The notes: a model not told the origin generated them from the letters alone. A stretch of DNA of 64,000 nucleotides from Candidatus Nomurabacteria bacterium (GCA_943356495.1 CALRFF010000003.1:551-64550), one strand, 5' to 3'. Numbered from the stretch's first letter, positions 1 to 60,019 are shown. Translations and numbers: made by a program.

Positions 1-3000
1 ACCATACCTCCAACACCTCTGCACCCGAGACAGACTATCTCTTGCTCGACTCAACGGCCGCCACTGCAGACGACGACACGTACTGGAACGACACCAAGCC
101 GACTGCATCTGTCTTCTCCGTCAAGTCTGCCACTGCCGTCAACGCCTCCGGCGCCACCTACGTCGCATACCTCTTCGCCTCCACCACGGGCTTCTCCTCA
201 TTCGGCTCCTACACGGGTAACGGCAGTGCCGACGGGCCCTTTGTCTACACTGGTTTTAAACCTCGCTTTGTGCTTGCTAAGCGGACCGACTCAACAGGTG
301 ACTGGTTTATGATCGACTCTGCGCGGACTACCACTACTAACCCCATAATTCCGACTGTGTGGGCCGATTTGGCGGATGCGGAGCAACTCAGCACCGCTCA
401 GGCTGACTTTAATGCAAACGGTTTTAAGCTCCGTTCCACCGGAGGCATAAATACCAGCACAGCAACCTATATCTACGCCGCATTCGCCGACGTGCCGTTC
501 AAATATTCCTCCGCAATCTCCGACGTCGGCGCGCTCTCCATCGCCAACTCCGCGCGGTTCATCTCGGGCAACAGCGATTATTTGAGCAAGACACCCGGAA
601 GTGCAAGCAACCGCAAAACCTGGACTTTTTCAACCTGGGTGAAACGAGCTGAGCTTGGCGCATATCAAAATATCTTTCAGATAGGAACAGCGGGTTCAGA
701 TTCGACGACATTCAATTTTCGTTTCGACTCCTCCGACCGTCTCGATATTGGAGGTGGCGCGACCACGTGGCGCGTTACGAGTGCGGTGTACCGCGATCCC
801 GCCGCTTGGCTTCATCTAGTGTTGGTAATGGATACGACCCAAGCGACTGCCGCCGACCGAATAAAACTGTATGTGAACGGCTCGCAGGTAACGGCGTTTG
901 GCACAAACGCTAATCCGACGCAAAATGCCGATCTCGCCGTCAATAACAACGCACTGCACGCAATTGGTAGGCACAATGACCCCACACAGTATCTCAACGG
1001 ATATCTATCGGATGCTCACTTGATAGACGGCGCGGCGTTGGCGCCGACATGCTTTGGCGAGACAGACGCTAATGGATATTGGAGGCCGAAGACCTACAGC
1101 ACCGCGTCGCCCTGCGCGGCATACGGCACCAACGGATTCAAGCTCTCGTTCGGCACGGGGAGTGCGCTCGGCACCGACACTTCCGGCAACGGCAACACGT
1201 GGACAGTCAACGGTCTTACCTCGGTCGACCAAGTTATCGACACACCCACTAATAGCTTCCCTACATTGAGCCCTATCGGTAATGTGGTTGCAGCGACGAG
1301 CCGCAGTACTCTGGCGAACGGCAATCTGAAAGCATCATCGGGTGCCGCGGTAAACGGATTACTCGCTACGCAAGAGTTCCCCACAACCGGCAAATGGTAC
1401 TCAGAGATAACACTGAATACCGCGCCGCCCTATCCATCACTCGGCCTAGCAATTTCTCAAACTGCCAACCAGCAGTACATAGATGCGGGTGTATATCTTA
1501 ATAGCTCTACGGGCATTTGGTACAACTCACAAAGTGCCACCGGACCGGCTACGAGCGATGCCGTAGGATTGGGCACATGGTCGAGCGGCGACGTGCTGAA
1601 CATCGCCTACGATGCGGACAATGGCAAGATATGGTTTGGCAGGAATGCCACCTATTACAACTCGGGAGATCCCGCCGCCGGCACTAATGCTACTTTTTCC
1701 GGTTCTGTTGTCGGTAGTAACAGATGGCAAGTCGGTGTCGGGACATATACCGGAGATTTGACCGTCAACTTCGGCCAGGGAGGTTTGGCCAGCCTGACCT
1801 ACGACTCCGCAGCGGGTGGCTACTTTAAATACACCCCACCCTCGGGCTACAAAGCCCTCTCGACCGCCAACATGGCGACACCCACCGTGACGGTGCCTAA
1901 AAATTATTTTGATGCCGTTACTTATCTCGGCACAGGCGCTGCAGAGACAGTCAAGGCATATGCGGTAACAGAAACATTTTATTACACGGGTGCGGACCAA
2001 ACATGGACAGTCCCAACAGGAGTCACCTCAATACGCGTAAAAGCGTGGGGTGCGGCAGGAGGCTCAACATCGCAAACGGGGGCTAACGCGGACTATGCAG
2101 GCGCGGGCGCGTATGTGACCGGAGAGATAAGTGTAACTGCAGGACAAACCTTAAAGTTGGTAGTAGGGCAGGGCGGTTCGCCCCGTGCAACCTCGGGGGG
2201 GCAGACGTATGGTGGTGGTGGCGGCGCCGGTACAAACAATGGGGTGTCGCCGGGCACGGGCGGGGGATATTCTGGCATATTTCTTACCTCGGTAAGCCAA
2301 GGCAATGCACTCGCCGTCGCGGGCGGCGGCGGCGGGTCTGCCAACACGAGCGACGCCGCTCAGTCTGGCGGAGCCGGAGGAGCCACGACCGGCTCGACAG
2401 GCACAGGGCCCGGCGGTACGGGTGGTACTACCTCGGCAGGTGGTACGGCCGGCACCGCAGGCTCAGGCCAAACCAACGGCTCGGCTCTTACCGGCGGCGA
2501 CGGCGCAACGCTCAACGGCGGCGGCGGCGGCGGCGGATACTATGGCGGCGGCGGCGGCGGGCAAACGACATCCGGCGGCGGCGGTTCAAGCTACCTTGGC
2601 ACCATGACAAATGCGTCAACAACCGCGAGTTCGGATGGTCATACTGCACCAAAAAAATCTGATCCCAATTATCCTAGTGGTGGAGTTGGCGAGGCTGATA
2701 CCACAGGAAATGTATCGGGTGGAAGCGGGCATATTGTCATTAGTTACAATATAAGCAACGTCACCGGCTTTACCCCCGACATCGTGTGGATTAAAGACCG
2801 TACGAGTGCGAATGCGCACGGGATTTTTTCCACTTCAACAACGCTGTATCCAGCGTGGGCGAGCAACGGCTCTGCGGCCGAAGGGGGCGGCACTACTGCC
2901 TTGCTCTCGTTTTTGAGTAACGGCTTTAGTCTCGGTGCATCTACCACGGTTAACACCAGCGGCGACAGTTATGTAGCCTGGATGTGGAAGGAGAGTGCAA

Positions 3001-3704
3001 CCGCCGGTTTTGACATCGTTACCTACACGGGCACGGGCGCCGCACAAACTATCGCCCACAGCTTGGGCAAAGCGCCTGACTTTATTATCGTCAAGCGCCG
3101 CGACGGCGCCGGCAGCCCGGCGGTGTATCACACCTCCAACACCTCGGCACCTGAGACCGACTACCTTTTGCTTGACTCGACTGCCGCCACCGCCGACGAT
3201 GATACTTACTGGAACGATACTAAACCGACTACGTCGGTGTTTAGCGTCAAGTCCAACACCAACACTAATTCCTCGGGCGCTACCTACGTGGCGTATCTCT
3301 TTGCCTCTACCACCGGCTTTTCCAACTTCGGCACTTATATAGGCAACGGCTCCGCCGACGGGCCGTTTGTGTATACGGGCTTCAAACCGCGTTTCCTGAT
3401 GTGGAAGCGAGTAAACAGCACAGGCTCATGGGGTGTCTATGATACGGTCCGTTCCACGTACAATCCGGCAACCGCAGGACTTCTTTTTGAGGAGAAGGGA
3501 GCAGAATTTTCCTACGATGCTTTTGATGTCCTCTCCAATGGATTCAAAGTACGTGCTGCAGGAGCAGGCACAAACGCGAGTAGCGATACACATATCTACT
3601 TTGCGTTTGCTGAACAACCGTTCAAATACTCCGCCGCTTCCGCATCCTCGGCAGCCTCCACTTTCGTCCAAGCAGTCGCCTTCCTCCTCGGCATGACGTT
3701 CTAA
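1..3704 (+). CDS. Very large secreted/surface protein, 5'-partial. Domains: LamG/ConA-like (~nt 600-900), SPRY-like (~nt 1380-1800), ALK-type glycine-rich domain (~nt 2000-2600). A ~130-aa module is duplicated at the N and C termini.
   Basis: The ORF continues in frame to nt 3 (HTSNTSAPETDYL upstream of the TTG at 42), so the gene starts outside the window. LamG_3-like pattern WTFSTWVKR...WLHLVLVMD...IKLYVNGSQV. SPRY-like GKWYSEITLN...GIWYN...GDVLNIAYDADNGKIWFGRN. Gly-rich block WTVPTGVTSIRVKAWGAAGG...LKLVVGQGG...GGGGGGGYYGGGGGG. The terminal modules (aa ~1-90 and ~1045-1135) are about 90 % identical in protein but diverged in nucleotide sequence. Confidence 0.7.
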   Translation, partial: HTSNTSAPETDYLLLDSTAATADDDTYWNDTKPTASVFSVKSATAVNASGATYVAYLFASTTGFSSFGSYTGNGSADGPFVYTGFKPRFVLAKRTDSTGDWFMIDSARTTTTNPIIPTVWADLADAEQLSTAQADFNANGFKLRSTGGINTSTATYIYAAFADVPFKYSSAISDVGALSIANSARFISGNSDYLSKTPGSASNRKTWTFSTWVKRAELGAYQNIFQIGTAGSDSTTFNFRFDSSDRLDIGGGATTWRVTSAVYRDPAAWLHLVLVMDTTQATAADRIKLYVNGSQVTAFGTNANPTQNADLAVNNNALHAIGRHNDPTQYLNGYLSDAHLIDGAALAPTCFGETDANGYWRPKTYSTASPCAAYGTNGFKLSFGTGSALGTDTSGNGNTWTVNGLTSVDQVIDTPTNSFPTLSPIGNVVAATSRSTLANGNLKASSGAAVNGLLATQEFPTTGKWYSEITLNTAPPYPSLGLAISQTANQQYIDAGVYLNSSTGIWYNSQSATGPATSDAVGLGTWSSGDVLNIAYDADNGKIWFGRNATYYNSGDPAAGTNATFSGSVVGSNRWQVGVGTYTGDLTVNFGQGGLASLTYDSAAGGYFKYTPPSGYKALSTANMATPTVTVPKNYFDAVTYLGTGAAETVKAYAVTETFYYTGADQTWTVPTGVTSIRVKAWGAAGGSTSQTGANADYAGAGAYVTGEISVTAGQTLKLVVGQGGSPRATSGGQTYGGGGGAGTNNGVSPGTGGGYSGIFLTSVSQGNALAVAGGGGGSANTSDAAQSGGAGGATTGSTGTGPGGTGGTTSAGGTAGTAGSGQTNGSALTGGDGATLNGGGGGGGYYGGGGGGQTTSGGGGSSYLGTMTNASTTASSDGHTAPKKSDPNYPSGGVGEADTTGNVSGGSGHIVISYNISNVTGFTPDIVWIKDRTSANAHGIFSTSTTLYPAWASNGSAAEGGGTTALLSFLSNGFSLGASTTVNTSGDSYVAWMWKESATAGFDIVTYTGTGAAQTIAHSLGKAPDFIIVKRRDGAGSPAVYHTSNTSAPETDYLLLDSTAATADDDTYWNDTKPTTSVFSVKSNTNTNSSGATYVAYLFASTTGFSNFGTYIGNGSADGPFVYTGFKPRFLMWKRVNSTGSWGVYDTVRSTYNPATAGLLFEEKGAEFSYDAFDVLSNGFKVRAAGAGTNASSDTHIYFAFAEQPFKYSAASASSAASTFVQAVAFLLGMTF

Positions 3705-11079: not shown

Positions 11080-13860
11080 TTACCGTTTTTCAGTAATTGT
11101 AAGCAGTTGGTCTACAGGGACCGCTGTACTAACTGTTTTAATACCCGAGGGCCACAGCACCGTAATGTCGACGGGGTTTGTTTGCTTGCCGAGTCCGAAT
11201 AGTAGGCGGTGCGAGCTCTGCGCGTAGAAACTGCTCCCCAGCAACACGGTTTGTGTTTGGGTAGTGCCGCCGGCGGTAACAGACACGACGGCGCCCACGG
11301 CGTCGGCGTTGCTTACGGTGCCCGTAAGATTAACTGCAATATAATGTGCGCCCGTGCCGGTGTTGCGGTACAGGGTCGGCGGTGTGCGCGCGACACCAAA
11401 GGCAAAGTATCCGACAAACAGGTCGGGGTAGCCGTCGTTGTCGTAGTCGGCGACCGCCGAGGGCCGGGTCAGTTGGCCGTCTGCGGGGCAAAAACCCTGT
11501 GCGGTGACATCGGCAAAACCGGTGGCGGTGCGTCGGTACAGCTTGTCCGAGCGGTACAGCGCGCGGGTAAGGTCGAGCCGCGGCAGGTCAGAGCGCGTCT
11601 CGACGTTGCCGTTGCCGACAAACAGGTCGCGCCGGCCGTCGTTGTCGTAGTCAAACAGGTTAATGCCCCAGGCGATACTAAGCGGGTTAAGCCGGTGTAC
11701 CCAGCGCTCGTCGGTAAAAGTGCCGTTACCGTTGTTTTTGTACAACTCGGTCTTGCTGATGTTGCTTACCGCCACATCCTGCAGGCCGTCGCCGCTGTAG
11801 TCGCCGACGTCGGCCCCCATGCCGTCGCCGTAAAAGTTCATACCCGCCTCGGCGGTCATGTTAGAGAATGTCAGCCTGCCGTCGTTGCGCATAAGCAGGT
11901 TGGTGCCCCAGTCGACGCTTAAAAATATGTCCTGCCTGCCGTCTTGGTTATAGTCGAACGATACCGGTTGGTAAAACGAGTTGGATACGGCGTCGTACGG
12001 GTGTTCGGCGGTAGAAAATGACTGACCGGTGCTGCTAGCGTAGAGCGCGTGCAGTTGCGCGGCAAACGGCGCGTGCTCGGTAAACCCATTGCCGCCTCGG
12101 TTGGTAAACAAATGCGCCGAGCCCGGTTTGTATGCGGTAGCAAAAAAGAGGTCGTCGAGGTTGTGGTGCAATGCCTGCGGGTCTTTGGTAAGGGGGATCC
12201 GTTCCACCGTAAGCATGCAGCCGCCGTCTGCCACAAACGCGTCGCGCGCCGCGGCGCGGGCAAACTCCGGCGGTCCGTACTTTTGCAGAATCGCGGTGAC
12301 GACCGCGCTGTCGCATATAATTTGTTGCTGCGTATTGAGATACGGTTCAAAAAAAGCTTTAAGTAACGCCCAGTTGCCGACCGGCGAGAGGTCGTAGTAG
12401 TTGGCCTGCGCCGCGTACACAAAGTCGAGGTACCCGTCGCTGTCGTAGTCGGCAAAGGAGAGCGTGCCGCCGCCCGGCGGCAGGGTAAACGCATTCAGCC
12501 CGAGCGCCTTCGTTGTTTCGCTAAAGCCGCTGCCGGTATTTTTAAATACGCGCACGGCGGTGACTTTTGGTTTTTGTGCCAGAGGTTCGCCGTCTACGGC
12601 CGTACGATAGTCTTGCATGCCTTGTACGACAAACAGGTCGCGCCGGCCGTCATTGTCGTAGTCGGCAAAGAACGCGCTTTGCGAGTTAACGGCGGGCAAG
12701 CCCGCAGCGGTTGTGGTGTCGACAAACCCCAGAGGGGTATTGCGATACAACCGGCTGGGTTCGTCGATACTCGAGACAAACAAGTCGTCGCGGCCGTCGC
12801 TGTCGTAGTCGCCCCACGAAGCGCCGGTGGTCATGCGCGCCGAGGCATTAAATGATTTGTCAGGGACAAACGCAGGAGTTTTTGAGCATTGTGTTATCGA
12901 CGGGCTTTCGACACCCATCAGCAAAAATGCCGGCGAGACACGGGTAAATTCTACATACAGGCCGTCTTTGCGTATGGTCTGTACGTAGGCGGCCCCCATG
13001 GCCAGTACCAAAAAAAGACACGCAAGACTATTTTTGGGCAGTGCGGCCGCTTTGGTGGGCACAAGTCGCATGGCGTATGCGGAGAGGAGCGTAAGCACTG
13101 TTACGCCAAACGATGCGACAAACAGCGCATACTTGACCCCCAGCATTTCCAGCAAGAAGAATGCCGAGGCAACCCCGATGCCGTGCAGTATCCGCGGGTA
13201 CGTGCCCGTGGGCGAGGTGCGCGGGTCGGTAATCATAAACGAGGCAAAAAGCACCAGCGAGGGGCCGAGTATCCCGTAGTGGTGCACCGACAATATATCG
13301 AGATGGAAAGGAACTGATATAAGGAGGAGTGCGGTGTAGCTGAGCAAAAAAGACAACGTTGTTATCCATGCGCCTGCGCGGTAGGAAATAAAAAAGCATA
13401 TAGCCGCTACCAGCGCGTAGACCCATAGACTGTTGCCCCATTGCGTAAACTCGACTGTTGCGGCGGAGGGGAAGGCAAATACCAACACCACGACGGCGAT
13501 GTTCGACGGATTAAAAATGTGTTTACCGTTTGCTTTGAGTACGTATTTTGAGCCTACGGCGACGAGTGCGGCAAGAAAAAAGTATATGGGGTCGGTTGCT
13601 CTAAAAAATATAGCTATCCCAAGCGCCGCGGCTACGGCGCTTGCGGGGAAAAACAGCTCAAACGGGAGACCTTTGGCACGGCGCGCTATGTAGGTAAAAA
13701 GAAGTTCGGCCGCAACAGCGGTGGCAAGCCCGACGACGATGTCTGTCCACCCGAGGTTAAACTCCAGCACCGTCTTGCCCAAGACAACAAAGAACGCTTG
13801 CGCGGCTATAAGGAGATATAGCGGGTTCAGCCCGTTAACGATGTCGCTAACGGGCTTCAC
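11080..13860 (-). CDS. CRTAC1-family protein (FG-GAP/VCBS repeats plus a C-terminal ASPIC/UnbV domain) fused to an N-terminal ~280-aa polytopic membrane domain
   Basis: At least seven DYDNDGRRDLFV-type FG-GAP repeats. C-terminal UnbV-like LLGSSFYAQSSHRLLFGLG...VLWPSGIKT. The N terminus has ~8 predicted TM helices. Confidence 0.65.
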   Translation of the reverse strand: MKPVSDIVNGLNPLYLLIAAQAFFVVLGKTVLEFNLGWTDIVVGLATAVAAELLFTYIARRAKGLPFELFFPASAVAAALGIAIFFRATDPIYFFLAALVAVGSKYVLKANGKHIFNPSNIAVVVLVFAFPSAATVEFTQWGNSLWVYALVAAICFFISYRAGAWITTLSFLLSYTALLLISVPFHLDILSVHHYGILGPSLVLFASFMITDPRTSPTGTYPRILHGIGVASAFFLLEMLGVKYALFVASFGVTVLTLLSAYAMRLVPTKAAALPKNSLACLFLVLAMGAAYVQTIRKDGLYVEFTRVSPAFLLMGVESPSITQCSKTPAFVPDKSFNASARMTTGASWGDYDSDGRDDLFVSSIDEPSRLYRNTPLGFVDTTTAAGLPAVNSQSAFFADYDNDGRRDLFVVQGMQDYRTAVDGEPLAQKPKVTAVRVFKNTGSGFSETTKALGLNAFTLPPGGGTLSFADYDSDGYLDFVYAAQANYYDLSPVGNWALLKAFFEPYLNTQQQIICDSAVVTAILQKYGPPEFARAAARDAFVADGGCMLTVERIPLTKDPQALHHNLDDLFFATAYKPGSAHLFTNRGGNGFTEHAPFAAQLHALYASSTGQSFSTAEHPYDAVSNSFYQPVSFDYNQDGRQDIFLSVDWGTNLLMRNDGRLTFSNMTAEAGMNFYGDGMGADVGDYSGDGLQDVAVSNISKTELYKNNGNGTFTDERWVHRLNPLSIAWGINLFDYDNDGRRDLFVGNGNVETRSDLPRLDLTRALYRSDKLYRRTATGFADVTAQGFCPADGQLTRPSAVADYDNDGYPDLFVGYFAFGVARTPPTLYRNTGTGAHYIAVNLTGTVSNADAVGAVVSVTAGGTTQTQTVLLGSSFYAQSSHRLLFGLGKQTNPVDITVLWPSGIKTVSTAVPVDQLLTITEKR

Positions 13861-16545: not shown

Positions 16546-16836
16546 ATGTATACGGTCTATGTGTTGGAAAGCCAACGAGACAAATCCTGGTATATCGGCC
16601 AGACAGACGACCTAAGGCGTCGCCTGATGCAGCATAATTCAGGCAATGGGGGTAGGACTACAAGAATTAAAGGCGGACCGTGGAAGTTGGTATACGCTGA
16701 AGCGTATTGTGACAAAAGAGATGCATTAGGTCGGGAAAAGTTTTTAAAAGGTGGTTCTGGTCGGAAATATTTACAAAAGCAACTAGTGCATTATTTACAA
16801 GACACTCCTACCCTCGAAGGAAGTTATATAAAATGA
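16546..16836 (+). CDS. GIY-YIG nuclease family protein (small, UPF0213/Slx1-like)
   Basis: YTVYVLESQRDKSWYIGQTDDLRRRLMQHN. Local GC (~45-50 %) is well below the flanks. Confidence 0.7.
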   Translation: MYTVYVLESQRDKSWYIGQTDDLRRRLMQHNSGNGGRTTRIKGGPWKLVYAEAYCDKRDALGREKFLKGGSGRKYLQKQLVHYLQDTPTLEGSYIK

Positions 16837-17457: not shown

Positions 17458-18843
17458 ATGAAATTGGGGCGACTTATAGGTGTTTCTGTTTTTATGTTTG
17501 CCCTTGGGGTAGGGGGATTTTTTGCCTATAACGCCCCCGCGCCGGCCGTAGCGCAGGAGCTGACGCCCCAGCAGCGTGCGGTCCTGCAGGCCGAGTATGA
17601 CCAATTGCAAAAGGAGATTGCCGAGTGGCAAAAAGTCTTGGACGAAACGCAGGCCAAGAAAAATACTCTTAAAGGCGATGTTTCCGCGCTTACTGCGCAG
17701 ATAAACAAGGCGACCGCCGAGATAAAACAACGCAACGTGGTTATTACCCAGCTTTCCACCCAGATAGCACAAAAAAATAAAACCGTCGCCACGCTTAATG
17801 CCCGCCTAACCGCCGGCCAAGAGTCGCTGGCAAAAATTTTGCGCGAAAAGTCCGAGCGCGACTCGACGCCGCTGGTGGTGCTTGCGCTTTCTTCGGGCAG
17901 TTTGTCCGACTTTTTCGGCACGGTAGACGACCTCGACACGCTCAACGGGGCACTGCAGGAGCACTTTGACGACCTGCGGGGGATAAAAAAACAAACCGAG
18001 GAAGAAAAGGCGGCGCTCGCTAAACAGCAAAACGCGCAACTCGACGCGCGCTACCAAGTGCAGGTAAAAGAAAAGCAGATAACCGCCGACAAGACCGAAA
18101 AAAATAAGCTTCTGGCGGCGACTACAAAACAAGAGCAGGGCTACGCGCAAATTCTTGCCGAGCGGCAAAAACGCGCCGACGAAATCCGCAATGCTTTGTT
18201 TGACCTGCGCGACGCGGGCGGCATTTCGTTTGAAAGCGCGCTTAACTACGCCACCGTGGCGGGCGCTAAAACCGGCGTACGTCCGGCGATGATACTTGCC
18301 ATCCTTTCGCAGGAGTCCGACTTGGGTAAAAATATCGGCTCGTGTTTAGTGACTAACCTTGAGACGGGCAACGGCGTGGGTAAAAACACAGGCTCGGCGT
18401 TTGAAAAGGTGATGAAGGCGCCGCGCGACACCGAGCCGTTTCAAACCGTTACAGCGGCGCTCGGGCTTAACTGGGCGTCAACGCCGGTGTCCTGCCCCTT
18501 GGGCAAGGTGTACAGCGCGGGCCGCGGCTACGGCGGCGGTATGGGGCCGTCGCAGTTTATCCCCTCTACCTGGGTGCTGTTTGAGCCGCGGCTAAAAGTG
18601 GCGCTTGGCGTCGGCACCCCCAACCCGTGGAATCCGCAGGACGCTATTATGGCCACATCACTGTATTTAAAAGACTTAGGCGCCGCCGCGGGTACCTATA
18701 CCGCCGAGCGCAATGCCGCCTGCAAGTATTACTCGGGCCGCTCGTGTGACAGCAGGACCCCCACCAACTATACCTACGGCAACGCGGTGGTTGCCAAGGC
18801 GGAGACCTTCCAAAACAATATAGACTTTCTTAAGGACAACTAG
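17458..18843 (+). CDS. Secreted or anchored coiled-coil protein with a C-terminal lytic-transglycosylase-like (SLT) domain
   Basis: Signal anchor. ~250 aa of heptad-rich sequence. C-terminal AMILAILSQESDLGKNIGS (catalytic Glu context) and GMGPSQFIPSTW. Confidence 0.55.
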   Translation: MKLGRLIGVSVFMFALGVGGFFAYNAPAPAVAQELTPQQRAVLQAEYDQLQKEIAEWQKVLDETQAKKNTLKGDVSALTAQINKATAEIKQRNVVITQLSTQIAQKNKTVATLNARLTAGQESLAKILREKSERDSTPLVVLALSSGSLSDFFGTVDDLDTLNGALQEHFDDLRGIKKQTEEEKAALAKQQNAQLDARYQVQVKEKQITADKTEKNKLLAATTKQEQGYAQILAERQKRADEIRNALFDLRDAGGISFESALNYATVAGAKTGVRPAMILAILSQESDLGKNIGSCLVTNLETGNGVGKNTGSAFEKVMKAPRDTEPFQTVTAALGLNWASTPVSCPLGKVYSAGRGYGGGMGPSQFIPSTWVLFEPRLKVALGVGTPNPWNPQDAIMATSLYLKDLGAAAGTYTAERNAACKYYSGRSCDSRTPTNYTYGNAVVAKAETFQNNIDFLKDN

Positions 18844-18881: not shown

Positions 18882-21800
18882 TTGATGCAGCAACAAAGCC
18901 GCAACCTATGGATATTACTGGGCGCGGTTGCCGTAGCCGCGGGTATCCTGTCGCAGGGTTTTTTTGCCGAGCAATTTAGGCTAGTCTTGGCTACACTGCC
19001 CGCTGCCTCGCAAAGCGCCACAACTGCGCTTGGTGTCGAGCAAGGCTTGCCCTCGTATAGCGGCTACCCGTCGCCGACCAACTGCAGCACCGGCGAAAGT
19101 CTTTGTTACCCGAACACGCGCATCACTATGGTAAGCGTGCGCGACCAAGGCGGCGCCTCGGGCGCAGGGGAGACAAAATATATGGATTTAGCAGGGGTTG
19201 CAGGCTCTTCCGGTACCCCGGTAGTATTGGCGACACTTAACCCCACTACCATTCAATGGTCGTGCCAGCCGTCGCAGGTCGTAACCAGTCCTTACTATCA
19301 ATCGCAGACCTGCTCCTCCACTTACGACTGTAGCTGTTGGTTGGACTCCTATGGTGGTGTATTTTGCAGCACGTGTACCAGTTATTACGAGTGCGGGTAT
19401 TGGACCACACAAACCAACACCTACACGATGAGCGCGGGGTCCACCGGGAGCGGCGGAGCATTTACCGCAGGCGGCCTTAGCGGGTCGCAAACGCTTACCT
19501 ACCCGGTGGGTACGTACGAAACCGGAGAGGTCGTGCCCTACACCCTTTCCTGCAACTACGGTACACCCGTAAGTATCAACGTCACCATGGGGTCGACGAT
19601 TACCACCACCTCGCTGTCGGCAAGTGCTACCACCTTGCGCGCGGGGCTCGACCAAACAACGCTTACGGTTACCGCCACTGATGCGGTTGCCGACTCCTGC
19701 CAGTTGTTAGGTAACGCGGGTGTCATTAAGTCATACACGGGCACTAGTGTTAGCGACATAATAGACGTAGGGCCTTTCAACAACGAAAGCGAATCACAAA
19801 CCGTACGCATAAGGTGTATTACGCCGGAGGGCTTCAGCAAGACGTCGTCCGTTACTCTGACGATAAAAATACCGCCGGCACTTTCTATCACCGCAAACAA
19901 CCTCCCTACGGTCGCCTTTGTCGCGCCGAACACCAGCGCCGATATACGCTGGACCTCGAGCAACCAATATCCTAACTCCTGCTCGGTCAGCTATACCGCG
20001 TACGGCGGCTCGTGCGCCGCCGCGGCCAAGTATGTCGCCACTAAAGGCGCCTATGCATGGAAGGCGTTTACCGTGGACGGGGATACCTTTTTGGCGGTCG
20101 CCAACGCGTACGACGGCACGACGTACAACACCGACTCCAGTATTTACAAATGGGTGTCGAGCTTGAGCTGTTTCGGTAAAGACGCCGAGTCGCCGTGCGG
20201 GACGTCGTACCAAGACATAGCCACCAACGGCGCCTCCATGTGGGAGTCGTTTACCGTCTCGGGCGATACGTACCTTGCGGTCGCCAACAGCCGTAATGAC
20301 ACGACCCGTCTGGTGAATTCAAACATATACAAATGGCTTTCCGCACAGGCGTGCTTCGGGGCGGACACGACCTGCGGCACGGCGTACCAGTCGATACCCA
20401 CAAGCGGCGCGGTCGACCTGCAGCCTATTACTGTCGGTTCTACGTTATATTTGGCCGCGGCCAATTATCGCGACGACACGACCTACGCCACCAGCAGTAC
20501 GCTGTATCGCTGGATGTCCTCGGGGACCAATTGCCCTTCGGGCGGCGGCTTCGGCAACGGTGCTGCCTGCGGGTCGGTGCTGCAGTCGATAGCTACTAAA
20601 GGTGCCTACCGCATGGAAGCATTTGTAGTAGAAGGTGAGTCGTACTTGGCGGTCAGTAACGCCTACGACGGCAGCGGGTATAACCTTCCTTCCCATATCT
20701 ATAAATACACCGCGACCGGCACTAACTGTCCCTCGGGCGGAGGCTTTGGCAACGGCAATACGCATACCTGCGGGACGCCGATACAAACCATAAACACGAG
20801 CGGGGCATACGGGTTTAAATTCTTTATGGTCGGCAGCGCGCCGTACCTTGCGGTCGCCAACTCCTACGACGGCACCACCTTCCAGATCAACTCAAAGATT
20901 TATAAATGGATGAGCGGCAGCAAATGCTTCGGCAGCGGGACTACCTGTAGTGCCGCGTTTCAGGTATTGGCAACCAAGGGCGCCACGCAGCTGCAGACGT
21001 TTACTATCGGCCCGGAGACGTACCTGCTTGCCGCCAACGCGTACGACGGACTTACCTACAATATAAGTTCCAGCATGTACCGCTGGATGCAAAGCTCCCA
21101 GTGCTTCGGCAACAGCACCTCTTGTGGCACTGCGCTCGAAGTAATCCCCACGAGCGGAGCGGCATGGTGGGAGCCGGTCACAGTAAACGGCGACGTGTAT
21201 TTGGCGACCGCCAACTACTTTAACGGCACTACCCGCAACATAAACTCCGCGATTATGAAGTGGTCTCCGAACGGCTGCGGCGACACAGAGTTTGGTACTC
21301 CGGCCACGTGGACCGCCGACCAAAGCCCCGTCGCCGGCTACCCGACGGGAGTCTTTTCCGGCGCTCGACTGTATACGCTTGTTTGTAAATGGATGGACAA
21401 CACCACCGCCAGCAGTACCAGCGTCATCGTATCGGTGTTGCCGGAACTTATATTGAGCGCCAACGGCAGCACTACCAACCCTGTGTATGTGACCCCCGGC
21501 AGCGCGGCGCTTATACAGTGGTCGGCAAAGAATGTGCAAAACGGTTCCTGCGGCGTCACCAACACCTACGACGCTTCTAATTGGGCAGGGGACAACAACT
21601 CCGCCGGCTACTCCTCGCCGGTGTTTAGCAACGGACAGGAAATAACCTACACGCTCGCCTGCCTTGGGCTGGACGGCGCACCGCTTACTAAGGTAATGCG
21701 GGTCATCGGCGCTACGCCGGTGCCGCTGCTTTCCAGCCTTTCTATATCCGCCTCGCGCGTGGTTAAAGGCGGCCGCCCGACTATCCACTGGAACGCCACC

Positions 21801-22028
21801 GACCTTGATGCCGGCATCGAGTGTAGCGTTACACCTACCTTGCAGGGCGGTGCCTCGGCCTCTACGTGGGATGGCTCGGGTACTACATGGAGTTCACCCG
21901 TGGGCGGCGCGATAGGGCCCATTATCACCGTGGCGACCGCCTTTACGCTTAAGTGTGTTAATGCGGCCGGCGACATCGCGCAGGTCTCTGCGGTAGCCAA
22001 CCTGATTCCGGGCTTTAAGGAGATATAA
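18882..22028 (+). CDS. Secreted multi-domain protein with two Ig-like modules, a seven-bladed EAR/EPTP-like beta-propeller (nt ~20028-21270), then two Ig-like modules
   Basis: Seven ~55-aa repeats of the form C-x-G...Q-x-I-x-T-x-GA...F-x-V-x-G-x-x-YLAVAN-x-x-(D/N)-x-T-x-x-x-S-x-IYKW, which is the EAR/EPTP consensus. N-terminal signal peptide. Confidence 0.7.
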   Translation: MMQQQSRNLWILLGAVAVAAGILSQGFFAEQFRLVLATLPAASQSATTALGVEQGLPSYSGYPSPTNCSTGESLCYPNTRITMVSVRDQGGASGAGETKYMDLAGVAGSSGTPVVLATLNPTTIQWSCQPSQVVTSPYYQSQTCSSTYDCSCWLDSYGGVFCSTCTSYYECGYWTTQTNTYTMSAGSTGSGGAFTAGGLSGSQTLTYPVGTYETGEVVPYTLSCNYGTPVSINVTMGSTITTTSLSASATTLRAGLDQTTLTVTATDAVADSCQLLGNAGVIKSYTGTSVSDIIDVGPFNNESESQTVRIRCITPEGFSKTSSVTLTIKIPPALSITANNLPTVAFVAPNTSADIRWTSSNQYPNSCSVSYTAYGGSCAAAAKYVATKGAYAWKAFTVDGDTFLAVANAYDGTTYNTDSSIYKWVSSLSCFGKDAESPCGTSYQDIATNGASMWESFTVSGDTYLAVANSRNDTTRLVNSNIYKWLSAQACFGADTTCGTAYQSIPTSGAVDLQPITVGSTLYLAAANYRDDTTYATSSTLYRWMSSGTNCPSGGGFGNGAACGSVLQSIATKGAYRMEAFVVEGESYLAVSNAYDGSGYNLPSHIYKYTATGTNCPSGGGFGNGNTHTCGTPIQTINTSGAYGFKFFMVGSAPYLAVANSYDGTTFQINSKIYKWMSGSKCFGSGTTCSAAFQVLATKGATQLQTFTIGPETYLLAANAYDGLTYNISSSMYRWMQSSQCFGNSTSCGTALEVIPTSGAAWWEPVTVNGDVYLATANYFNGTTRNINSAIMKWSPNGCGDTEFGTPATWTADQSPVAGYPTGVFSGARLYTLVCKWMDNTTASSTSVIVSVLPELILSANGSTTNPVYVTPGSAALIQWSAKNVQNGSCGVTNTYDASNWAGDNNSAGYSSPVFSNGQEITYTLACLGLDGAPLTKVMRVIGATPVPLLSSLSISASRVVKGGRPTIHWNATDLDAGIECSVTPTLQGGASASTWDGSGTTWSSPVGGAIGPIITVATAFTLKCVNAAGDIAQVSAVANLIPGFKEI

Positions 22029-22235: not shown

Positions 22236-23801
22236 CTATAACGCGGCGTTGTACCAGCGCCTGAGCAGACCTGCGGCAAAAATTACAGCGAAGAAACCGA
22301 GGAGCGGCGCGTTACCGAAACGCGAGAAAAAAGTCGGGCTCGTGTCGGCCAACACGATCTCGCCGCGCAGGAGAGTGCTTTCACCTATACCCGCGTATGC
22401 CATAAGAGAGCCGTCCGCGCGGATAATGGCCGAAGGCCCGAGCACATTGGCGCGTATGACGGGCAGATTATTTTCTACGGCGCGAAACCGGGCCGCTCGA
22501 AGGCTGTACACACGCACGGTCGTCCCAAAAAAACTTTCAGAGCCGACGGAAACAATAACCGATGAACGTTGCGCGTCTGTGCGCACCTCGTCTTGGCCGT
22601 ATACCTCCGAGCATATGGCCCCCGCAACCTCCCTACCCGCTATGGTGAATTGCTGACCGGCTCCGCCCGGAGTTATTTCCTCCGAGATGGTCGAAAGGCC
22701 GGCGTGCTGCGCCCAGCGTGGTGTATAGTCAAAAAAAGGAAACAAAGAACGCTTTCGGTACTCGGCGGCGAGCGCCCCGTCTTTGTAGGTCTGCAGTTCG
22801 TTGTACAGCAGGTCGTTTTGGTAGTAACTGGCCCAGACTAAGGCAGTGGTTCCCGCAGGCAACTGTTGCGCAAACCACGCCGCAACCGAGTCTGCCGAAG
22901 CAACGGAAAGATCGTATTTGAGTACCGGCTTTTTGTCATCGTACAGTACTCCCCGGGAGGGCGAAAAAGGGTATACGACGAGGTTGGACTTGTTTTTTGA
23001 CGCCTCCCTAAGCCACGGCTCCAGCGCCGAGAGGCTAAACACACCATCGTACTCCCGGCCGATAAGACGTTGGGGGTTAGCATCATCGCCAAACTGGATA
23101 CTGGCGACCGAGATAGACTGACCCCCAGCCTCGGGCGCGCGTGCATACAGGACCGCGCCGACACATAGCACGCCGATTACATACAGGGGGACGACCCCGA
23201 GGGCTACCGCGGGGCGGCGTGCCCAGTGTTGGGGTGCCTCGGCTAGCAAAGCATTACCCCAGGCAATCAAAAAAGAGACAAGAAATAGGCCCCCCACTGC
23301 GCCGAACGCCATAAGCACGGGCACCTCGGCGGCGGCATAGCCGAGGAGTGCAAAATTGTACCCGCCGTAAAGGCTGTAGAGCAGCAGCTCACCGGTCACA
23401 TACAGGACGGCGCCAAGCAGGCTGTTATGTAACAACGAGTCCGACCGCAAGGCTCTATATATGAGCAACGCTATGCCGGTGCAGACCCCGCCGAGCGCGG
23501 CAACAAGGAAAAAGCTAAGACGCACCGCCGTAATAAAAAACTGCTGGTCTGCGCTCCACCGAAACTCAACCACTGCGCCGAGCGAGAGCGAAAGAGCCAG
23601 CATGCCGCCGGCAATACATCCGCCCAAAAATACTTGCCATGCCGGTCGGTTGGGGAATGCGGCAACAAAATAAAAAAGAGGCGCAAGCGCGACGAACGTC
23701 AGGGGCCATACATCGTAGGGGTAAAAGGCGAGGACCAAAAGCGCGCCCGAAAGTACGGGCAGAATAAACCATCGACGCTCTAACAATTCACTGCTCGGCA
23801 T
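22236..23801 (-). CDS. lnt: Apolipoprotein N-acyltransferase-like protein (Lnt family: membrane domain plus CN-hydrolase domain). The start is trimmed to MPSSELL.
   Basis: Multi-TM N terminus, RKRSLFPFFDYTP (Lys motif) and GAICSEV (Cys motif). The longer ORF reaches 23972. Overlaps the upstream gene by 14 nt. Confidence 0.6.
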   Translation of the reverse strand: MPSSELLERRWFILPVLSGALLVLAFYPYDVWPLTFVALAPLFYFVAAFPNRPAWQVFLGGCIAGGMLALSLSLGAVVEFRWSADQQFFITAVRLSFFLVAALGGVCTGIALLIYRALRSDSLLHNSLLGAVLYVTGELLLYSLYGGYNFALLGYAAAEVPVLMAFGAVGGLFLVSFLIAWGNALLAEAPQHWARRPAVALGVVPLYVIGVLCVGAVLYARAPEAGGQSISVASIQFGDDANPQRLIGREYDGVFSLSALEPWLREASKNKSNLVVYPFSPSRGVLYDDKKPVLKYDLSVASADSVAAWFAQQLPAGTTALVWASYYQNDLLYNELQTYKDGALAAEYRKRSLFPFFDYTPRWAQHAGLSTISEEITPGGAGQQFTIAGREVAGAICSEVYGQDEVRTDAQRSSVIVSVGSESFFGTTVRVYSLRAARFRAVENNLPVIRANVLGPSAIIRADGSLMAYAGIGESTLLRGEIVLADTSPTFFSRFGNAPLLGFFAVIFAAGLLRRWYNAAL

Positions 23802-25050
23802 GCGTAATAAAGCGGCGCACTTTGACGCCGCCACGGGATAGCACAGGCACGATAATAGCTTTAAAAGTCCCCACCGCGCCTTGCGCAAGGGCTGTCTGCA
23901 TTGTTGCCGTCGGAGAGAGACGCCACACACTCGGGACCTCGCGTTCGATAAACGCGGCAAGATCGTGCGCACGTTCGGAGTCGGTCGACAAAACAGGGTC
24001 CACCACTTCTACCTGTATGGAGACTGCCGTACTCCCTTTAATCGGATAAAAATGTACTTGATACTCTTTGCCGGCCAAATGGGGAAAGACCGCAAACGCG
24101 CGGTCCGACTCCTCGACATCGAATTGCATGCCGTTGACGCGTACGCGGTCCACGTCGCTTCGGTGTGACCACTCAAGCAAAGGACCCGGCAAGTCGCACG
24201 AGCAGCCCTCCGGAACTTCGGCAAAATAGTCGCCGGTCCGGTACCGGAGCAGCGGCGTCGCTTTATTGTTGCCGAAGCTTATAACAAGTTCGTCGTCTAT
24301 AAGCTCCATGGCAGCAACGTCGGTCGTTACTATATGAAAACGGTTTTGTCCTTTCTTCATTATGTCGGGGCAGGTAAAGAGGATCCATTGGCCTATCTCG
24401 GTCGTAGCGTATATGCTGCCCATTAACGCGTTAGGGAACACCGCACCTAATTCAGCCCGTCTTGCGCCGGTAAGTGCCTCGGCGGAAAAGACTATAAGTT
24501 TTATATGTTCTGCTATGCCGCCGGCTTTTGCGTAAGGAGCGAAGGCCGAGGCGATGGTGGGGAGTGCCCACAACGAGTCGCATCCGGCCATCTTGGAGAT
24601 AATCACGTTGTTGGCCATGTTGTTGAGGTCGCCGAACACGGGTACGACCGGATGGCGTGCCTCCTGACACATCTGCACGAACACGGTAGGGAACCCTTTT
24701 TGTATCTGCGGATGGAGCACCAACGGACGCGCGGTGGGGTAGCCCAGCGACGGTTCAACCCCGTACTTTTGCACCCGCGCGTACGGGATAATAAGCGGAG
24801 TGCCCGAGGTAGTGCCGGAGGTAAGCGCAACCGAGCGTATCTCTTCTTTCGGCACAAAAAGTCTGCGGTCTACCGGAGTATCGATAAGTTCTTGGCGCGT
24901 GAGCAGCGGAAGATTAAAAAAACTATCTATGGTTACGGTCTTGGGCTCCACCCCGGCGTGCATATATTTGTCGCGGTAAAAGGAAGAGTAGGAGTTGCCG
25001 ACCGCGGCCGCGAGTAGCTGCTCGAGCAGGGGGCGGTTGATCCATTGCAT
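23788..25050 (-). CDS. Adenylate-forming enzyme of the PaaK / CapK / coenzyme-F390-synthetase family
   Basis: [14 protein letters not shown] (phosphate-binding loop) and LLRYRTGD. The start is trimmed to MQWINRPLL. The 5' extension of the long ORF overlaps rpmE. Confidence 0.7.
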
Positions 25051-25095
25051 AGGGCTATTATTGCAACAAAAGCGCTTTTGTGCTACATTCTTGGT

Positions 25096-25320
25096 GTGAA
25101 AACCGACACCCACCCGACCTATTTCCCCAAGGCTAAGATAACCTGCGCGTGCGGGCACTCCTTTACCGTGGGCTCCACCAAGGAGAAGCTCGAGGTGGAA
25201 ATCTGCTCCAATTGCCACCCGTTTTACACCGGCAACGAAAAGGTGCTCGACGCCGCCGGCCGTGTAGAGAAGTTTAAAAAGCGCGCCGCTTCCAAAACCT
25301 CGACTCTCAAGTCGAAGTAG
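25096..25320 (+). CDS. rpmE: 50S ribosomal protein L31 (zinc-ribbon type)
   Basis: GTG start (V)[13 protein letters not shown]...[19 protein letters not shown]. Confidence 0.85.
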
Positions 25321-26184
<864 letters not shown>

Positions 26185-30634: not shown

Positions 30635-34533
<3,899 letters not shown>

Positions 34534-37201: not shown

Positions 37202-38113
37202 ATGCAAAGCATTACTAACACCAAGGCCACCACGGTTGCGCTTATAGCGGCGCTTATAGTTGCTGCGCTCTTTGTTGCGGCACCCAAGGCACAAGCGGCT
37301 GACCTCGGCGACTTTGGCGGCTCGTATGATTTTTACCCGGACGCTCCGTCGTACGATTTCTACTCGGATGCTCCTTCTTACGATTTTTACCCTTCTGCCC
37401 CCGCATCGGCTCCGTCGTACGATTTCTACCCGGATGCTACTTCGTATGACTTCTATCCCGGCTACAGTTCATACACTCCGTCTTACGGCGGTTCCTACGG
37501 CGGTGGCAGCATGGGCGGCGGCTTCCCGTTCGGCGGTTCGAGCGGCATGAGCCAGTCTCAGTCGCAGAGCTCGACCAACGTCAACACGAACGTCAATACC
37601 AATACCTGCACCAGCGGTAGCTGCAATACCGCAATCAACGCTCCGACTAACATCGTAGTCTCCGGCGGCGGCTCTTCTAATAACAGCTACCCGGTCTACA
37701 CGCCTGTATACACTCCGGTCTACACCCCGCCGGTCTATCAGCCGACGTACTACCCGACCTATCAACAGCCTATCGCGTACAACAATACGCCGTATGTGTC
37801 GCTCTCTGCGGTACCGTACACCGGTCTTGAGCTGGGGCCCGTGGGCACGGCACTGTACTGGGGCTTCCTTATCGCTTGGTGCCTCGTTGCGGCGTACCTT
37901 ATAGTCGTCAAGCGCGTGCAGAACAAACTCGTAAGCGGTCTCAATACCTTCCTCTTCGGTGAGCCTTCTCAGAAGACTGTCGTTCAAAAGTCCTCGGATC
38001 TCCCGTCTGGGTCGGGCCAGACTTTTGCCCGCCAGTCTTCTGCTCCGGTTCGCGACAGCTTCTCTAACATCGACCCGTTTGTCGCGTCGCAAATCAAGCG
38101 CGCCGCGTTCTAA
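37202..38113 (+). CDS. Secreted tandem-repeat protein (5x SYDFYPDAP, PVYT repeats) with a sorting-signal-like VPYTG motif plus a hydrophobic helix and KR
   Basis: Signal peptide ALIAALIVAALFVAAPKAQA. Repeats encoded at 37331-37468. LSAVPYTGLELGPVGTALYWGFLIAWCLVAAYLIVVKR, followed by a ~50-aa tail. Confidence 0.6.
   Translation: MQSITNTKATTVALIAALIVAALFVAAPKAQAADLGDFGGSYDFYPDAPSYDFYSDAPSYDFYPSAPASAPSYDFYPDATSYDFYPGYSSYTPSYGGSYGGGSMGGGFPFGGSSGMSQSQSQSSTNVNTNVNTNTCTSGSCNTAINAPTNIVVSGGGSSNNSYPVYTPVYTPVYTPPVYQPTYYPTYQQPIAYNNTPYVSLSAVPYTGLELGPVGTALYWGFLIAWCLVAAYLIVVKRVQNKLVSGLNTFLFGEPSQKTVVQKSSDLPSGSGQTFARQSSAPVRDSFSNIDPFVASQIKRAAF
37331..37468 (+). repeat. Imperfect 27-nt tandem repeat (x5) encoding SYDFYPDAP
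   Basis: tcgta(t/c)ga(t/c)tt(t/c)tacccggatgctcc(g/t) units read directly. Confidence 0.8.

Positions 38114-53158: not shown

Positions 53159-60019
<6,861 letters not shown>

Follow-up and report, generated by a model that had tools for sequence, protein, structure and literature searches.

An EPTP beta-propeller nested in an immunoglobulin-like module of a candidate surface protein from a Kaiserbacteria-like Patescibacterium

In the literature, the EPTP (or EAR) repeat figures as a domain of animals, linked to the epilepsy and deafness genes LGI1, ADGRV1 and TSPEAR. In human LGI1 (PDB 5Y2Z, 5Y31 and 9KZC) the domain, which is also present in LGI2-4, TSPEAR and ADGRV1 (VLGR1), belongs to Pfam family PF03736 and consists of seven repeats, which correspond to the four-stranded blades of an extracellular propeller. 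The LGI1 propeller is the protein-binding module for the ADAM22 ectodomain; its N-terminal strand joins the last three strands to make blade 7 (a 1+3 'Velcro' closure), and the domain contains a single disulfide, C260-C286, together with a Ca2+ site in the channel (PMC5906670). Our literature search returned no description of bacterial EPTP proteins and one passing mention of a prokaryotic EPTP, which is listed as a eukaryote-like domain in a sponge-symbiont Thaumarchaeota archaeon (PMC7848895). Here we analyse a gene at positions 18882-22028 of a 64,000-nucleotide stretch of DNA labelled Candidatus Nomurabacteria bacterium (GCA_943356495.1, CALRFF010000003.1:551-64550; hereafter the window). 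The gene encodes a protein, which we call the EPTP protein, that shares the seven PF03736 repeats and the predicted four-stranded blades of the animal domain. We propose, with a probability of roughly 55%, that it is an exported cell-surface binding protein of a Kaiserbacteria-like, ultra-small Patescibacterium belonging to the candidate phyla radiation (CPR). The propeller of this protein is nested in an immunoglobulin (Ig)-like module.

Propellers of other families provide the closest functional parallels. The pilin PilX2 of the Saccharibacteria organism TM7x bears a seven-bladed propeller and is required for host binding (PMC11623550), and the actinobacterial protein EsrA, which combines a Sec signal and Ig-like repeats with a terminal propeller, senses epibionts (PMC13622651). 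Like PilY1 of Pseudomonas, these proteins carry a seven-bladed or WD40-type propeller on a surface filament or Ig-like stalk that recognises another cell. Their propellers, however, belong to other families (RCC1, PilY1-type and WD40), are mounted on pili or long Ig filaments, and have no sequence relationship to the window protein. PilX2 shows that Patescibacteria employ a module of this sort to bind their hosts. The cell-cell recognition molecules of the CPR are largely unknown beyond the type IV pili of Saccharibacteria. Conserved yet mosaic between strains, predicted to encode a surface protein and lying beside a muramidase-like gene, the EPTP gene is a candidate for studies of attachment and of the envelope in this group.

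The open reading frame (ORF) was found at exactly the coordinates given in an earlier note on this DNA, which had described a secreted protein with a seven-bladed EAR/EPTP-like propeller. The gene and its central domain are as follows.

18882-22028 (+): whole gene, predicted exported multidomain protein; 1048 aa from TTG in the ORF list, stop codon at 22026-22028
20013-21278 (+): seven-bladed EPTP/EAR beta-propeller, aa 378-799 (Pfam PF03736, AlphaFold2, Foldseek)

The ATG at 18885, directly after the TTG at 18882, is the start chosen by gene callers and probably the true start codon, giving 1047 aa. A database copy that begins at this ATG (P0001) is 100% identical to the window protein; six contigs drawn from several samples carry it, including one of the NCBI metagenome-assembled genome (MAG) GCA_943354845.1. 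We also recovered ten full-length orthologs at 55-70% protein identity. Ratios of nonsynonymous to synonymous divergence (dN/dS) for the gene are 0.05-0.3.

The Pfam EPTP model matches the protein in seven stretches with 225 bits (gathering cutoff 21; E=6.3e-68), and EPTP annotation is precomputed by Pfam on all the orthologs. No other Pfam family matches at E<=10, and the NCBIfam models give zero matches. The model search on which the earlier note had staked its seven EAR/EPTP repeats therefore returned a very strong and unique match, well outside what chance would give, rather than none. Cut at recurring cysteines, the seven tandem repeats are 58-66 aa long, span aa 367-798 (nt 19980-21275) and have a mean pairwise identity of 44%; they are detectable in the DNA as well, at 60-78% identity (families D3 and D4). 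The repeat alignment gives the following blade cores.

20016-20159 (+): blade repeat 1 core, aa 379-426
20199-20342 (+): blade repeat 2 core, aa 440-487
20376-20519 (+): blade repeat 3 core, aa 499-546
20571-20714 (+): blade repeat 4 core, aa 564-611
20772-20915 (+): blade repeat 5 core, aa 631-678
20949-21092 (+): blade repeat 6 core, aa 690-737
21126-21269 (+): blade repeat 7 core, aa 749-796

We modelled the full-length protein with AlphaFold2, using the ten orthologs as the input alignment. The model places seven blades of four strands each over aa 383-795 with a predicted local distance difference test score (pLDDT) of 85-92; in the all-beta modules on either side the score is 75-87, and for aa 1-200 it stays below 50. 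When this model was compared with the PDB by Foldseek, the best six matches were all LGI1 EPTP (E 9e-15 to 1e-13; template modelling (TM) scores of 0.81-0.83 on isolated EPTP chains), led by 9kzc_B with E=9e-15, a TM score of 0.83 normalised to the target and 14-15% identity. None of the other 44 PDB matches listed has a description naming a propeller protein; Ig-chain proteins (GhpA neck, alpha-2-macroglobulins) rank highest in this group. A search of the viral folds in BFVD yielded only virion proteins of a generic multi-Ig or propeller kind, at poor TM scores, and was uninformative. The strand order assigned by DSSP in the model fits a 1+3 'Velcro' closure, with the first strand at 383-385 and the last three at 760-794. 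The earlier idea of one closed seven-bladed propeller comparable to that of LGI1 thus agrees with the predicted structure.

By sequence, the relationship to LGI1 is more distant. Neither phmmer nor a family-profile search of PDB sequences reaches LGI1 from the window protein (E<=1 or E<=10), and only a spurious RNase T1 match appears. The window propeller does match a canonical prokaryotic EPTP protein, P0036, at E=2e-67, and P0036 in turn matches LGI1 at E=5.7e-12; because direct searches miss LGI1 and P0036 bridges both, the link is transitive only. Taking this chain together with the modelled fold, we regard the window propeller as genuinely related to the LGI1 EPTP domain in both sequence and fold. 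By domain content the protein is not an ortholog of LGI, TSPEAR or ADGRV1: Pfam finds no LRR, LamG, Calx-beta or 7TM match, and there is a single N-terminal hydrophobic segment. Unlike the metazoan EPTP proteins, it is bacterial, has no LRR, Calx-beta/GPCR or TSPN context, and carries its propeller nested in an Ig-like module.

Cysteines set the window propeller apart as well. The protein has 32 of them, an even number amounting to 3.1% of its residues, and all those of the propeller and Ig-like modules are invariant in the ten orthologs. The propeller accounts for 14: C378 at the entry of the chain, C799 at its exit, and six pairs in hairpins at the blade junctions, each pair invariant in the 10 orthologs.

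20169-20198 (+): Cys-pair linker hairpin C430-C439
20352-20375 (+): Cys-pair linker hairpin C491-C498
20532-20570 (+): Cys-pair linker hairpin C551-C563
20727-20771 (+): Cys-pair linker hairpin C616-C630
20925-20948 (+): Cys-pair linker hairpin C682-C689
21102-21125 (+): Cys-pair linker hairpin C741-C748

The junction pattern C-F-G-x-G-T-x-C-G recurs in distant relatives, and in relatives the linker cysteines are present or absent as pairs. If blade 7 is built as in LGI1, C378 and C799 would fall by register at the position that the linker hairpins occupy in blades 1-6, and by this analogy a C378-C799 disulfide probably closes the propeller ring. Each Ig-like module contributes one conserved cysteine pair (273/312, 367/835, 890/927 and 981/1025), and we infer that the 32 cysteines form 16 disulfides. 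In contrast to the one disulfide of the LGI1 domain, seven cysteine pairs are predicted for the window propeller. The paired cysteines noticed earlier at most blades are therefore real and fixed among the orthologs, and the suggestion of disulfide-stapled extracellular blades is supported and refined, with the bonds themselves predicted.

The remainder of the folded protein is made of Ig-like modules, for which Pfam holds no matching family. They are beta-sandwiches of ~90-105 aa with 7-8 strands and structural similarity to Ig, fibronectin type III (FN3) or macroglobulin (MG) domains.

19593-19874 (+): Ig-like module A, aa 238-331, Cys273/Cys312 (all-beta, pLDDT 80-86; alignment with the other modules)
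19875-20012 (+): Ig-like module B, N-terminal half, aa 332-377, Cys367 (splice alignment, splice fold)
21279-21440 (+): Ig-like module B, C-terminal half, aa 800-853, Cys835 (splice alignment, splice fold)
21441-21719 (+): Ig-like module C, aa 854-946, Cys890/Cys927 (fold model, alignment)
21720-22025 (+): Ig-like module D, aa 947-1048, Cys981/Cys1025, ending L-I-P-G-F-K-E-I-COOH (nt 22002-22025)

Ig-like folds do flank the propeller, as had been proposed, but the arrangement is not mere flanking. When aa 332-377 and 800-853 are spliced together, the resulting sequence aligns end-to-end with module C (blastp E=5e-11) and with module D (E=6e-7), and Trp, Cys, Trp, Thr-Leu and Cys columns are invariant across the splice. 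The same 105-residue sequence is modelled as one eight-stranded sandwich (pLDDT 78.5, predicted TM score 0.72). From the splice alignment and the splice fold it follows that a loop of module B holds the propeller (aa 378-799) as an insertion; both place this insertion after the strand that bears the first conserved cysteine of the module. Three orthologs (P0004, P0005 and P0011) carry an extra insertion of 230-250 residues at the same junction, which makes this loop an insertion hot spot. The extra domain of P0005 looks LamG-like by eye, a resemblance unsupported by Pfam at E<=0.1.

At the N-terminus two further regions can be distinguished.

18906-18971 (+): N-terminal hydrophobic segment, aa 9-30, the sole strongly hydrophobic 19-residue window of the protein
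19062-19592 (+): variable Cys-rich N-terminal region, aa 61-237, with 10 Cys, the least conserved region

Hydrophobic segments lie at the equivalent place in all the orthologs. In place of the plain signal peptide named in the earlier note, aa 9-30 would serve as a Sec signal or a signal-anchor, with at most ~8 residues ahead of it. This single segment, an acidic, Thr/Ser-rich mature part with an isoelectric point of 4.7 and the domains that accompany EPTP in its relatives speak for an extracellular location. The Cys-rich region that follows is modelled with low pLDDT, and a spliced version of it resembles module C weakly (blastp E=7e-6, one-sequence search). A tentative assignment is another Ig-like module whose equivalent loop has received a Cys-rich hairpin. 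The protein shows no enrichment of N-glycosylation sequons (14 observed against 12.9 +/- 3.1 in shuffles).

The C-terminus reads ...NLIPGFKEI without a hydrophobic tail, and no NCBIfam or Pfam sorting-signal model (LPXTG, Por CTD, PEP-CTERM) matches it, so that by its sequence the protein does not qualify for sortase-, type IX secretion (T9SS)- or exosortase-type sorting. Module D and the terminal motif [LIV][LIV]-P-x-[FY]-[KQ]-E-[IL]-COOH nevertheless recur in distant relatives with Cys linkers (P0020, P0031, P0098, P0117, P0125 and P0144), and the motif fits no known sorting-signal model. A profile search with the C-terminal module returned two fragments only, one of them labelled Candidatus Paceibacterota. 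We suggest that the motif may serve to anchor or sort surface proteins of the Paceibacteria type.

An unusual leader is also common to this Cys-linker subfamily: a hydrophobic helix, a spacer of 10-25 residues and a conserved A-A-A (or G-A-A) motif, which in the window lies at ~18990-19030 (aa ~38-50). The A-A-A motif is seen in the N-termini of P0006, P0013, P0031, P0098, P0117, P0125 and P0144. Located ~40-50 residues from the N-terminus and far from the helix, it may be a processing site.

To place the protein among prokaryotic sequences, the propeller was searched with phmmer against 1.84 billion cluster representatives. Matches number 938 at E<=1e-3, 553 at E<=1e-10 and 194 at E<=1e-30, and since LGI1 is undetectable with the propeller query, these 938 are not metazoan. 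The Pfam EPTP threshold is passed by 75 of 76 sampled relatives, whose partner domains include PKD, LamG_3, DUF11, Big_5, Calx-beta, CBM96 and Peptidase_S74. Exactly seven repeats were counted in 118 of 163 relatives, and some have 14 or ~28. Every relative inspected is a large extracellular multidomain protein, and 14 of 146 have lipobox-like leaders. As judged from these sequences, EPTP propellers are a rare but diverse prokaryote-type extracellular module. The view that a bacterial EPTP propeller is under-described consequently holds for the literature and not for the databases, in which Pfam already tags the domain on these proteins; with 938 cluster representatives, 'bacterial EPTP' as such is not exceptional.

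The window variant differs in several respects from the canonical prokaryotic form, represented by the metagenomic proteins P0018, P0021, P0027, P0032 and P0035-P0037. Blade cores of these proteins are 35-55% identical to those of the window (E down to 1e-214), and they score higher on the Pfam EPTP model, at 313-680 bits against 225. Their junctions follow the cysteine-free pattern W-N-G-x-x-F-x-x-x-Q, and their propellers are placed in series with PKD, LamG, TSP3 or S74 domains rather than nested in Ig-like modules. The C-F-G-x-G-T-x-C-G junction, by contrast, occurs in only ~10 clusters besides the orthologs among the best 150 representatives, which makes the Cys-stapled, Ig-nested form a small subfamily by sequence. 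More distant relatives with Cys linkers (P0013, P0020, P0031, P0098, P0117, P0125 and P0144) share both the junction hairpins and the leader type with the window protein, and most of them end with the same C-terminal Ig module and P-x-[FY]-[KQ]-E-I. They are larger (838-1878 aa) and combine several degenerate propellers with Calx-beta, BNR/sortilin-like or glycine-rich domains; for some the Pfam EPTP score is weak or absent.

Two combinations among the canonical relatives deserve mention in their own right. P0036 and P0037 consist of LamG-like and thrombospondin type-3 parts with seven EPTP repeats, which are the same parts as in metazoan TSPEAR, and P0036 matches thrombospondin-2 (E=7e-12) as well as LGI1 (E=5.7e-12) by sequence. 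P0027 and P0032 have seven EPTP repeats and end with Peptidase_S74, the 'chaperone of endosialidase' module, which cleaves itself in phage tail fibres and spikes; this pairing suggests that fibre-like receptor-binding proteins make use of EPTP propellers too.

The identity of the host was approached through GyrB, encoded in the window at 32455-34533, which is 84% identical to a Candidatus Kaiserbacteria protein and 78-79% identical to Adlerbacteria and 'Patescibacteria group' proteins. Together with the Candidatus Paceibacterota label of the C-terminal fragment, these identities mark the host as a Patescibacterium (CPR). Neither the protein nor the ortholog alignment turned up a relative among the GTDB species-representative contigs. 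A paper describing metagenome assemblies from Sphagnum (peat moss) mentions the contig record of one related sequence (P0008; ERZ12293633).

Within this lineage the EPTP gene is single-copy and located in a core neighbourhood of ribosomal and translation genes. The conserved order, found in loci of related MAGs and metagenomes at 50-70% protein identity, is L25, (Ser-hydrolase), coiled-coil SLT-like gene, EPTP, (apolipoprotein N-acyltransferase (LNT) and a 533-aa ORF, on the other strand), L31, RF1, S2 and EF-Ts. GC content of the EPTP gene is 0.565-0.593, against ~0.56 for the genome. Immediately upstream lies the gene that the earlier note had described as encoding a coiled-coil/SLT protein.

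17458-18843 (+): upstream neighbour, membrane-anchored coiled-coil protein with a lysozyme-like (SLT_2) C-terminal domain (Pfam)

The coiled-coil part of that description stands, with coiled-coil families matching too, but the SLT_2 match is weak (25.7 bits against a cutoff of 24.3), and a search of PDB sequences gave only marginal matches, to the EnvC coiled coil and to SltB. An SLT-like gene precedes EPTP in all related loci that include upstream DNA (L004, L005, L006, L009, L010, L012, L013, L014 and L016) and is conserved there across lineages at 50-58% protein identity (L009, L010, L012, L014 and L016). The two genes are separated by 38-41 nt in the window, depending on the start codon, and by ~40 nt in L009, L010 and L012, with 1-2 genes lying between them in L004 and probably in L013. 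They are possibly co-transcribed as an operon, and functional coupling of their products is possible.

The downstream pair was considered, together with the Ser-hydrolase gene, as a set of insertions specific to the window; this idea was dropped, as they are present in L009, L012 and L014. At 22236-25389 (-) LNT adjoins the 533-aa ORF, which has no Pfam match and contains, by eye, an adenylate-forming-enzyme-like motif, T-S-G-T-T-S-G-T-P. The pair is kept in L009 and L012 and missing in L004 and L005. The low-GC islet reported beside the gene amounts to only a modest dip, with GC of 0.50-0.52 at 16-18 kb against ~0.56 elsewhere. A small GIY-YIG-type ORF at 16546-16836 (+) lies in this dip; it has no counterpart in the related loci examined and may be a mobile endonuclease insertion.

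Comparison with a closely related MAG (L005) reveals how the gene has diverged between strains. We compared 18882-22028 of the window with L005:3364-6519, and the flanks over 14000-36000. Downstream, 8 kb of DNA is 99.6% identical and S2, GT2, PheT and GyrB are 100% identical, whereas the EPTP protein is only 70% identical, the SLT-like protein 95% and L25 93%. Divergence within the gene is uneven. A tract of 600 nt covering blades 3-6 (nt 20382-20981) is 96-100% identical, with synonymous divergence (dS) of 0.09, while dS exceeds 1 in the remaining segments of the gene for which it could be estimated, and the N-terminal third of the protein is 38-55% identical (39% in the Cys-rich region). 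Both alleles have been assembled independently several times. On this sequence pattern the EPTP gene is a recombination mosaic. Within the folded domains dN/dS is 0.05-0.18, and such low values indicate old, functional alleles, shuffled by recombination under purifying selection, and not decay. Across the ten orthologs mean identity is 74-78% for the propeller with its host Ig module (propeller 74%) and 50% for the Cys-rich N-terminal region. We rejected a diversity-generating retroelement as the source of the hypervariability, since a template/variable repeat pair is lacking: the 64-kb window holds no long near-identical repeat involving the EPTP gene, and there is no reverse transcriptase among the neighbours.

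For the binding protein that we propose, export through Sec would be followed by disulfide formation, with one bond in each Ig-like module, one in each of the six junction hairpins, and one as the C378-C799 clamp. By fastening the chain at its point of entry and exit in the 'Velcro' blade, this clamp would produce a rigid head on an Ig-like stalk. The propeller would then bind a protein or glycan, much as EPTP does in LGI1-ADAM22; the ligand would likely lie on a partner or host cell or in the cell's own envelope, and peptidoglycan at that site may be a target of the neighbouring SLT-like muramidase. Mosaic, fast-diverging alleles would fit a surface molecule under diversifying pressure. We base the proposed binding on the LGI1-ADAM22 precedent, on the portable extracellular contexts of the relatives and on the analogy with PilX2. 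The C-terminal module could be the anchor, and in combination with processing at the A-A-A motif this would turn the variable N-terminal domain into the exposed tip.

Several points weigh against this proposal. Conservation is highest in the propeller (74%) and lowest in the N-terminal region; were the protein anchored by its N-terminus, this variable region would sit next to the membrane, not where a distal recognition tip is expected. Only a single syntenic clade shows the adjacency to the SLT-like gene, which the distant relative P0013 lacks. The adjacency may come from inherited gene order and not from functional coupling. Finally, many of the same facts would be accounted for if the protein were a component of an S-layer.

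That S-layer or other envelope-lattice role is the main rival, though we judge it unlikely. Ig-like modules and propeller would together form a lattice anchored at one terminus, with a structural or protective function. A single-copy gene in a conserved core neighbourhood would be in keeping with such a role, as would the acidic, Thr/Ser/Ala/Gly-rich composition (isoelectric point 4.7 for the mature part) and the strong divergence between strains, a trait that S-layer genes typically show as well; the anchor could be provided by the conserved C-terminal module and its fixed terminal motif. Published work on S-layers fits too: S-layer proteins are predicted in Patescibacteria and consist mostly of Ig-like sandwiches, and the one of Dehalococcoides uses a beta-propeller (bioRxiv 10.1101/2024.05.28.596244). 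Pfam and NCBIfam, on the other hand, find no SLH, CWB2 or other known anchoring domain in the EPTP protein. S-layer proteins usually have few or no cysteines, and 3.1% Cys with 16 putative disulfides is atypical of them. The occurrence of the same propeller in very diverse architectures, including the tail-fibre-like Peptidase_S74 proteins, is better explained by a portable binding module.

A bolder version of the binding proposal is speculative, and we would not bet on it. The EPTP protein would be the partner-recognition molecule of Kaiserbacteria-like episymbionts, or a phage receptor, with recombining alleles setting host range at the level of strains; EPTP would be primarily a prokaryotic extracellular domain, and the animal propeller could descend from a bacterial surface protein, with P0036 and P0037 sharing the parts of TSPEAR. 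What the window does hold is a core CPR gene, inherited vertically, that encodes a genuine EPTP propeller. At least 938 prokaryote-type clusters carry the same propeller, and the gene offers a starting point for work on the origin of the metazoan domain. The window variant is distinguished by the predicted disulfides at blade junctions, the predicted ring clamp and the insertion in an Ig loop, and it is also new relative to the described systems in its shared C-terminal module and motif and in its CPR host with strain-level mosaicism. It offers a compact example of a propeller made into a rigid, insertable extracellular module.

We think it very improbable that the propeller is catalytic (a lactonase-, cyclase- or PQQ-type enzyme) or acts as an EsrA-like extracellular sensor. 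Many bacterial propellers are enzymes, weak Lactonase-family matches occur in 2 of 76 relatives, and EsrA likewise has a propeller together with a Sec signal and Ig-like repeats (PMC13622651). No enzyme family, however, matches the EPTP protein at E<=10 in Pfam or NCBIfam, and the residues conserved in every blade are those of the structural EPTP core, which LGI1 also has. Kinase, MoxR and vWA genes are absent within 10 kb on either side, and the few residues ahead of the hydrophobic segment leave no possibility of a cytoplasmic signalling domain.

Recent acquisition from an animal, as a 'eukaryote-like protein' that mimics or binds eukaryotic host factors, is the least credible reading: EPTP was defined in metazoan LGI1, ADGRV1 and TSPEAR and called eukaryote-like in the Thaumarchaeota symbiont (PMC7848895), and the best solved-structure match is human LGI1, but identity to LGI1 is only 14-15% and neither protein nor family profile finds it by sequence, the inspected clusters among the 938 are prokaryote-type by their partner domains and lipobox or Sec leaders, the GC content of the gene equals that of the genome, and core synteny conserved across lineages at 50-70% identity implies that inheritance in the clade is old and vertical.

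The window contains other unusual genes. A 2286-aa ORF at 53159-60019 (+) has all the RpoB domains followed by all the RpoC domains, so that the beta and beta' subunits appear to be fused. At 42-3704 (+) a protein of 1220 aa, probably a large surface protein by its sequence, combines Laminin_G_3, a glycine-rich domain of the ALK/LTK type (PF12810, known from animal receptor kinases) and two DUF7483; DNA repeat D1 (3-283 and 3129-3409, 75% identical) lies inside this gene. An FG-GAP/UnbV_ASPIC propeller protein of 925 aa at 11080-13860 (-) has an N-terminal match to the RnfD/NqrB membrane family (36.6 bits), an unusual combination. Within the ORF at 37202-38113, a short tandem DNA repeat at 37316-37458 (offsets of 27 and 66 nt, 74-86% identity) encodes, by reading, (A/D)PSYDFY-like repeats.

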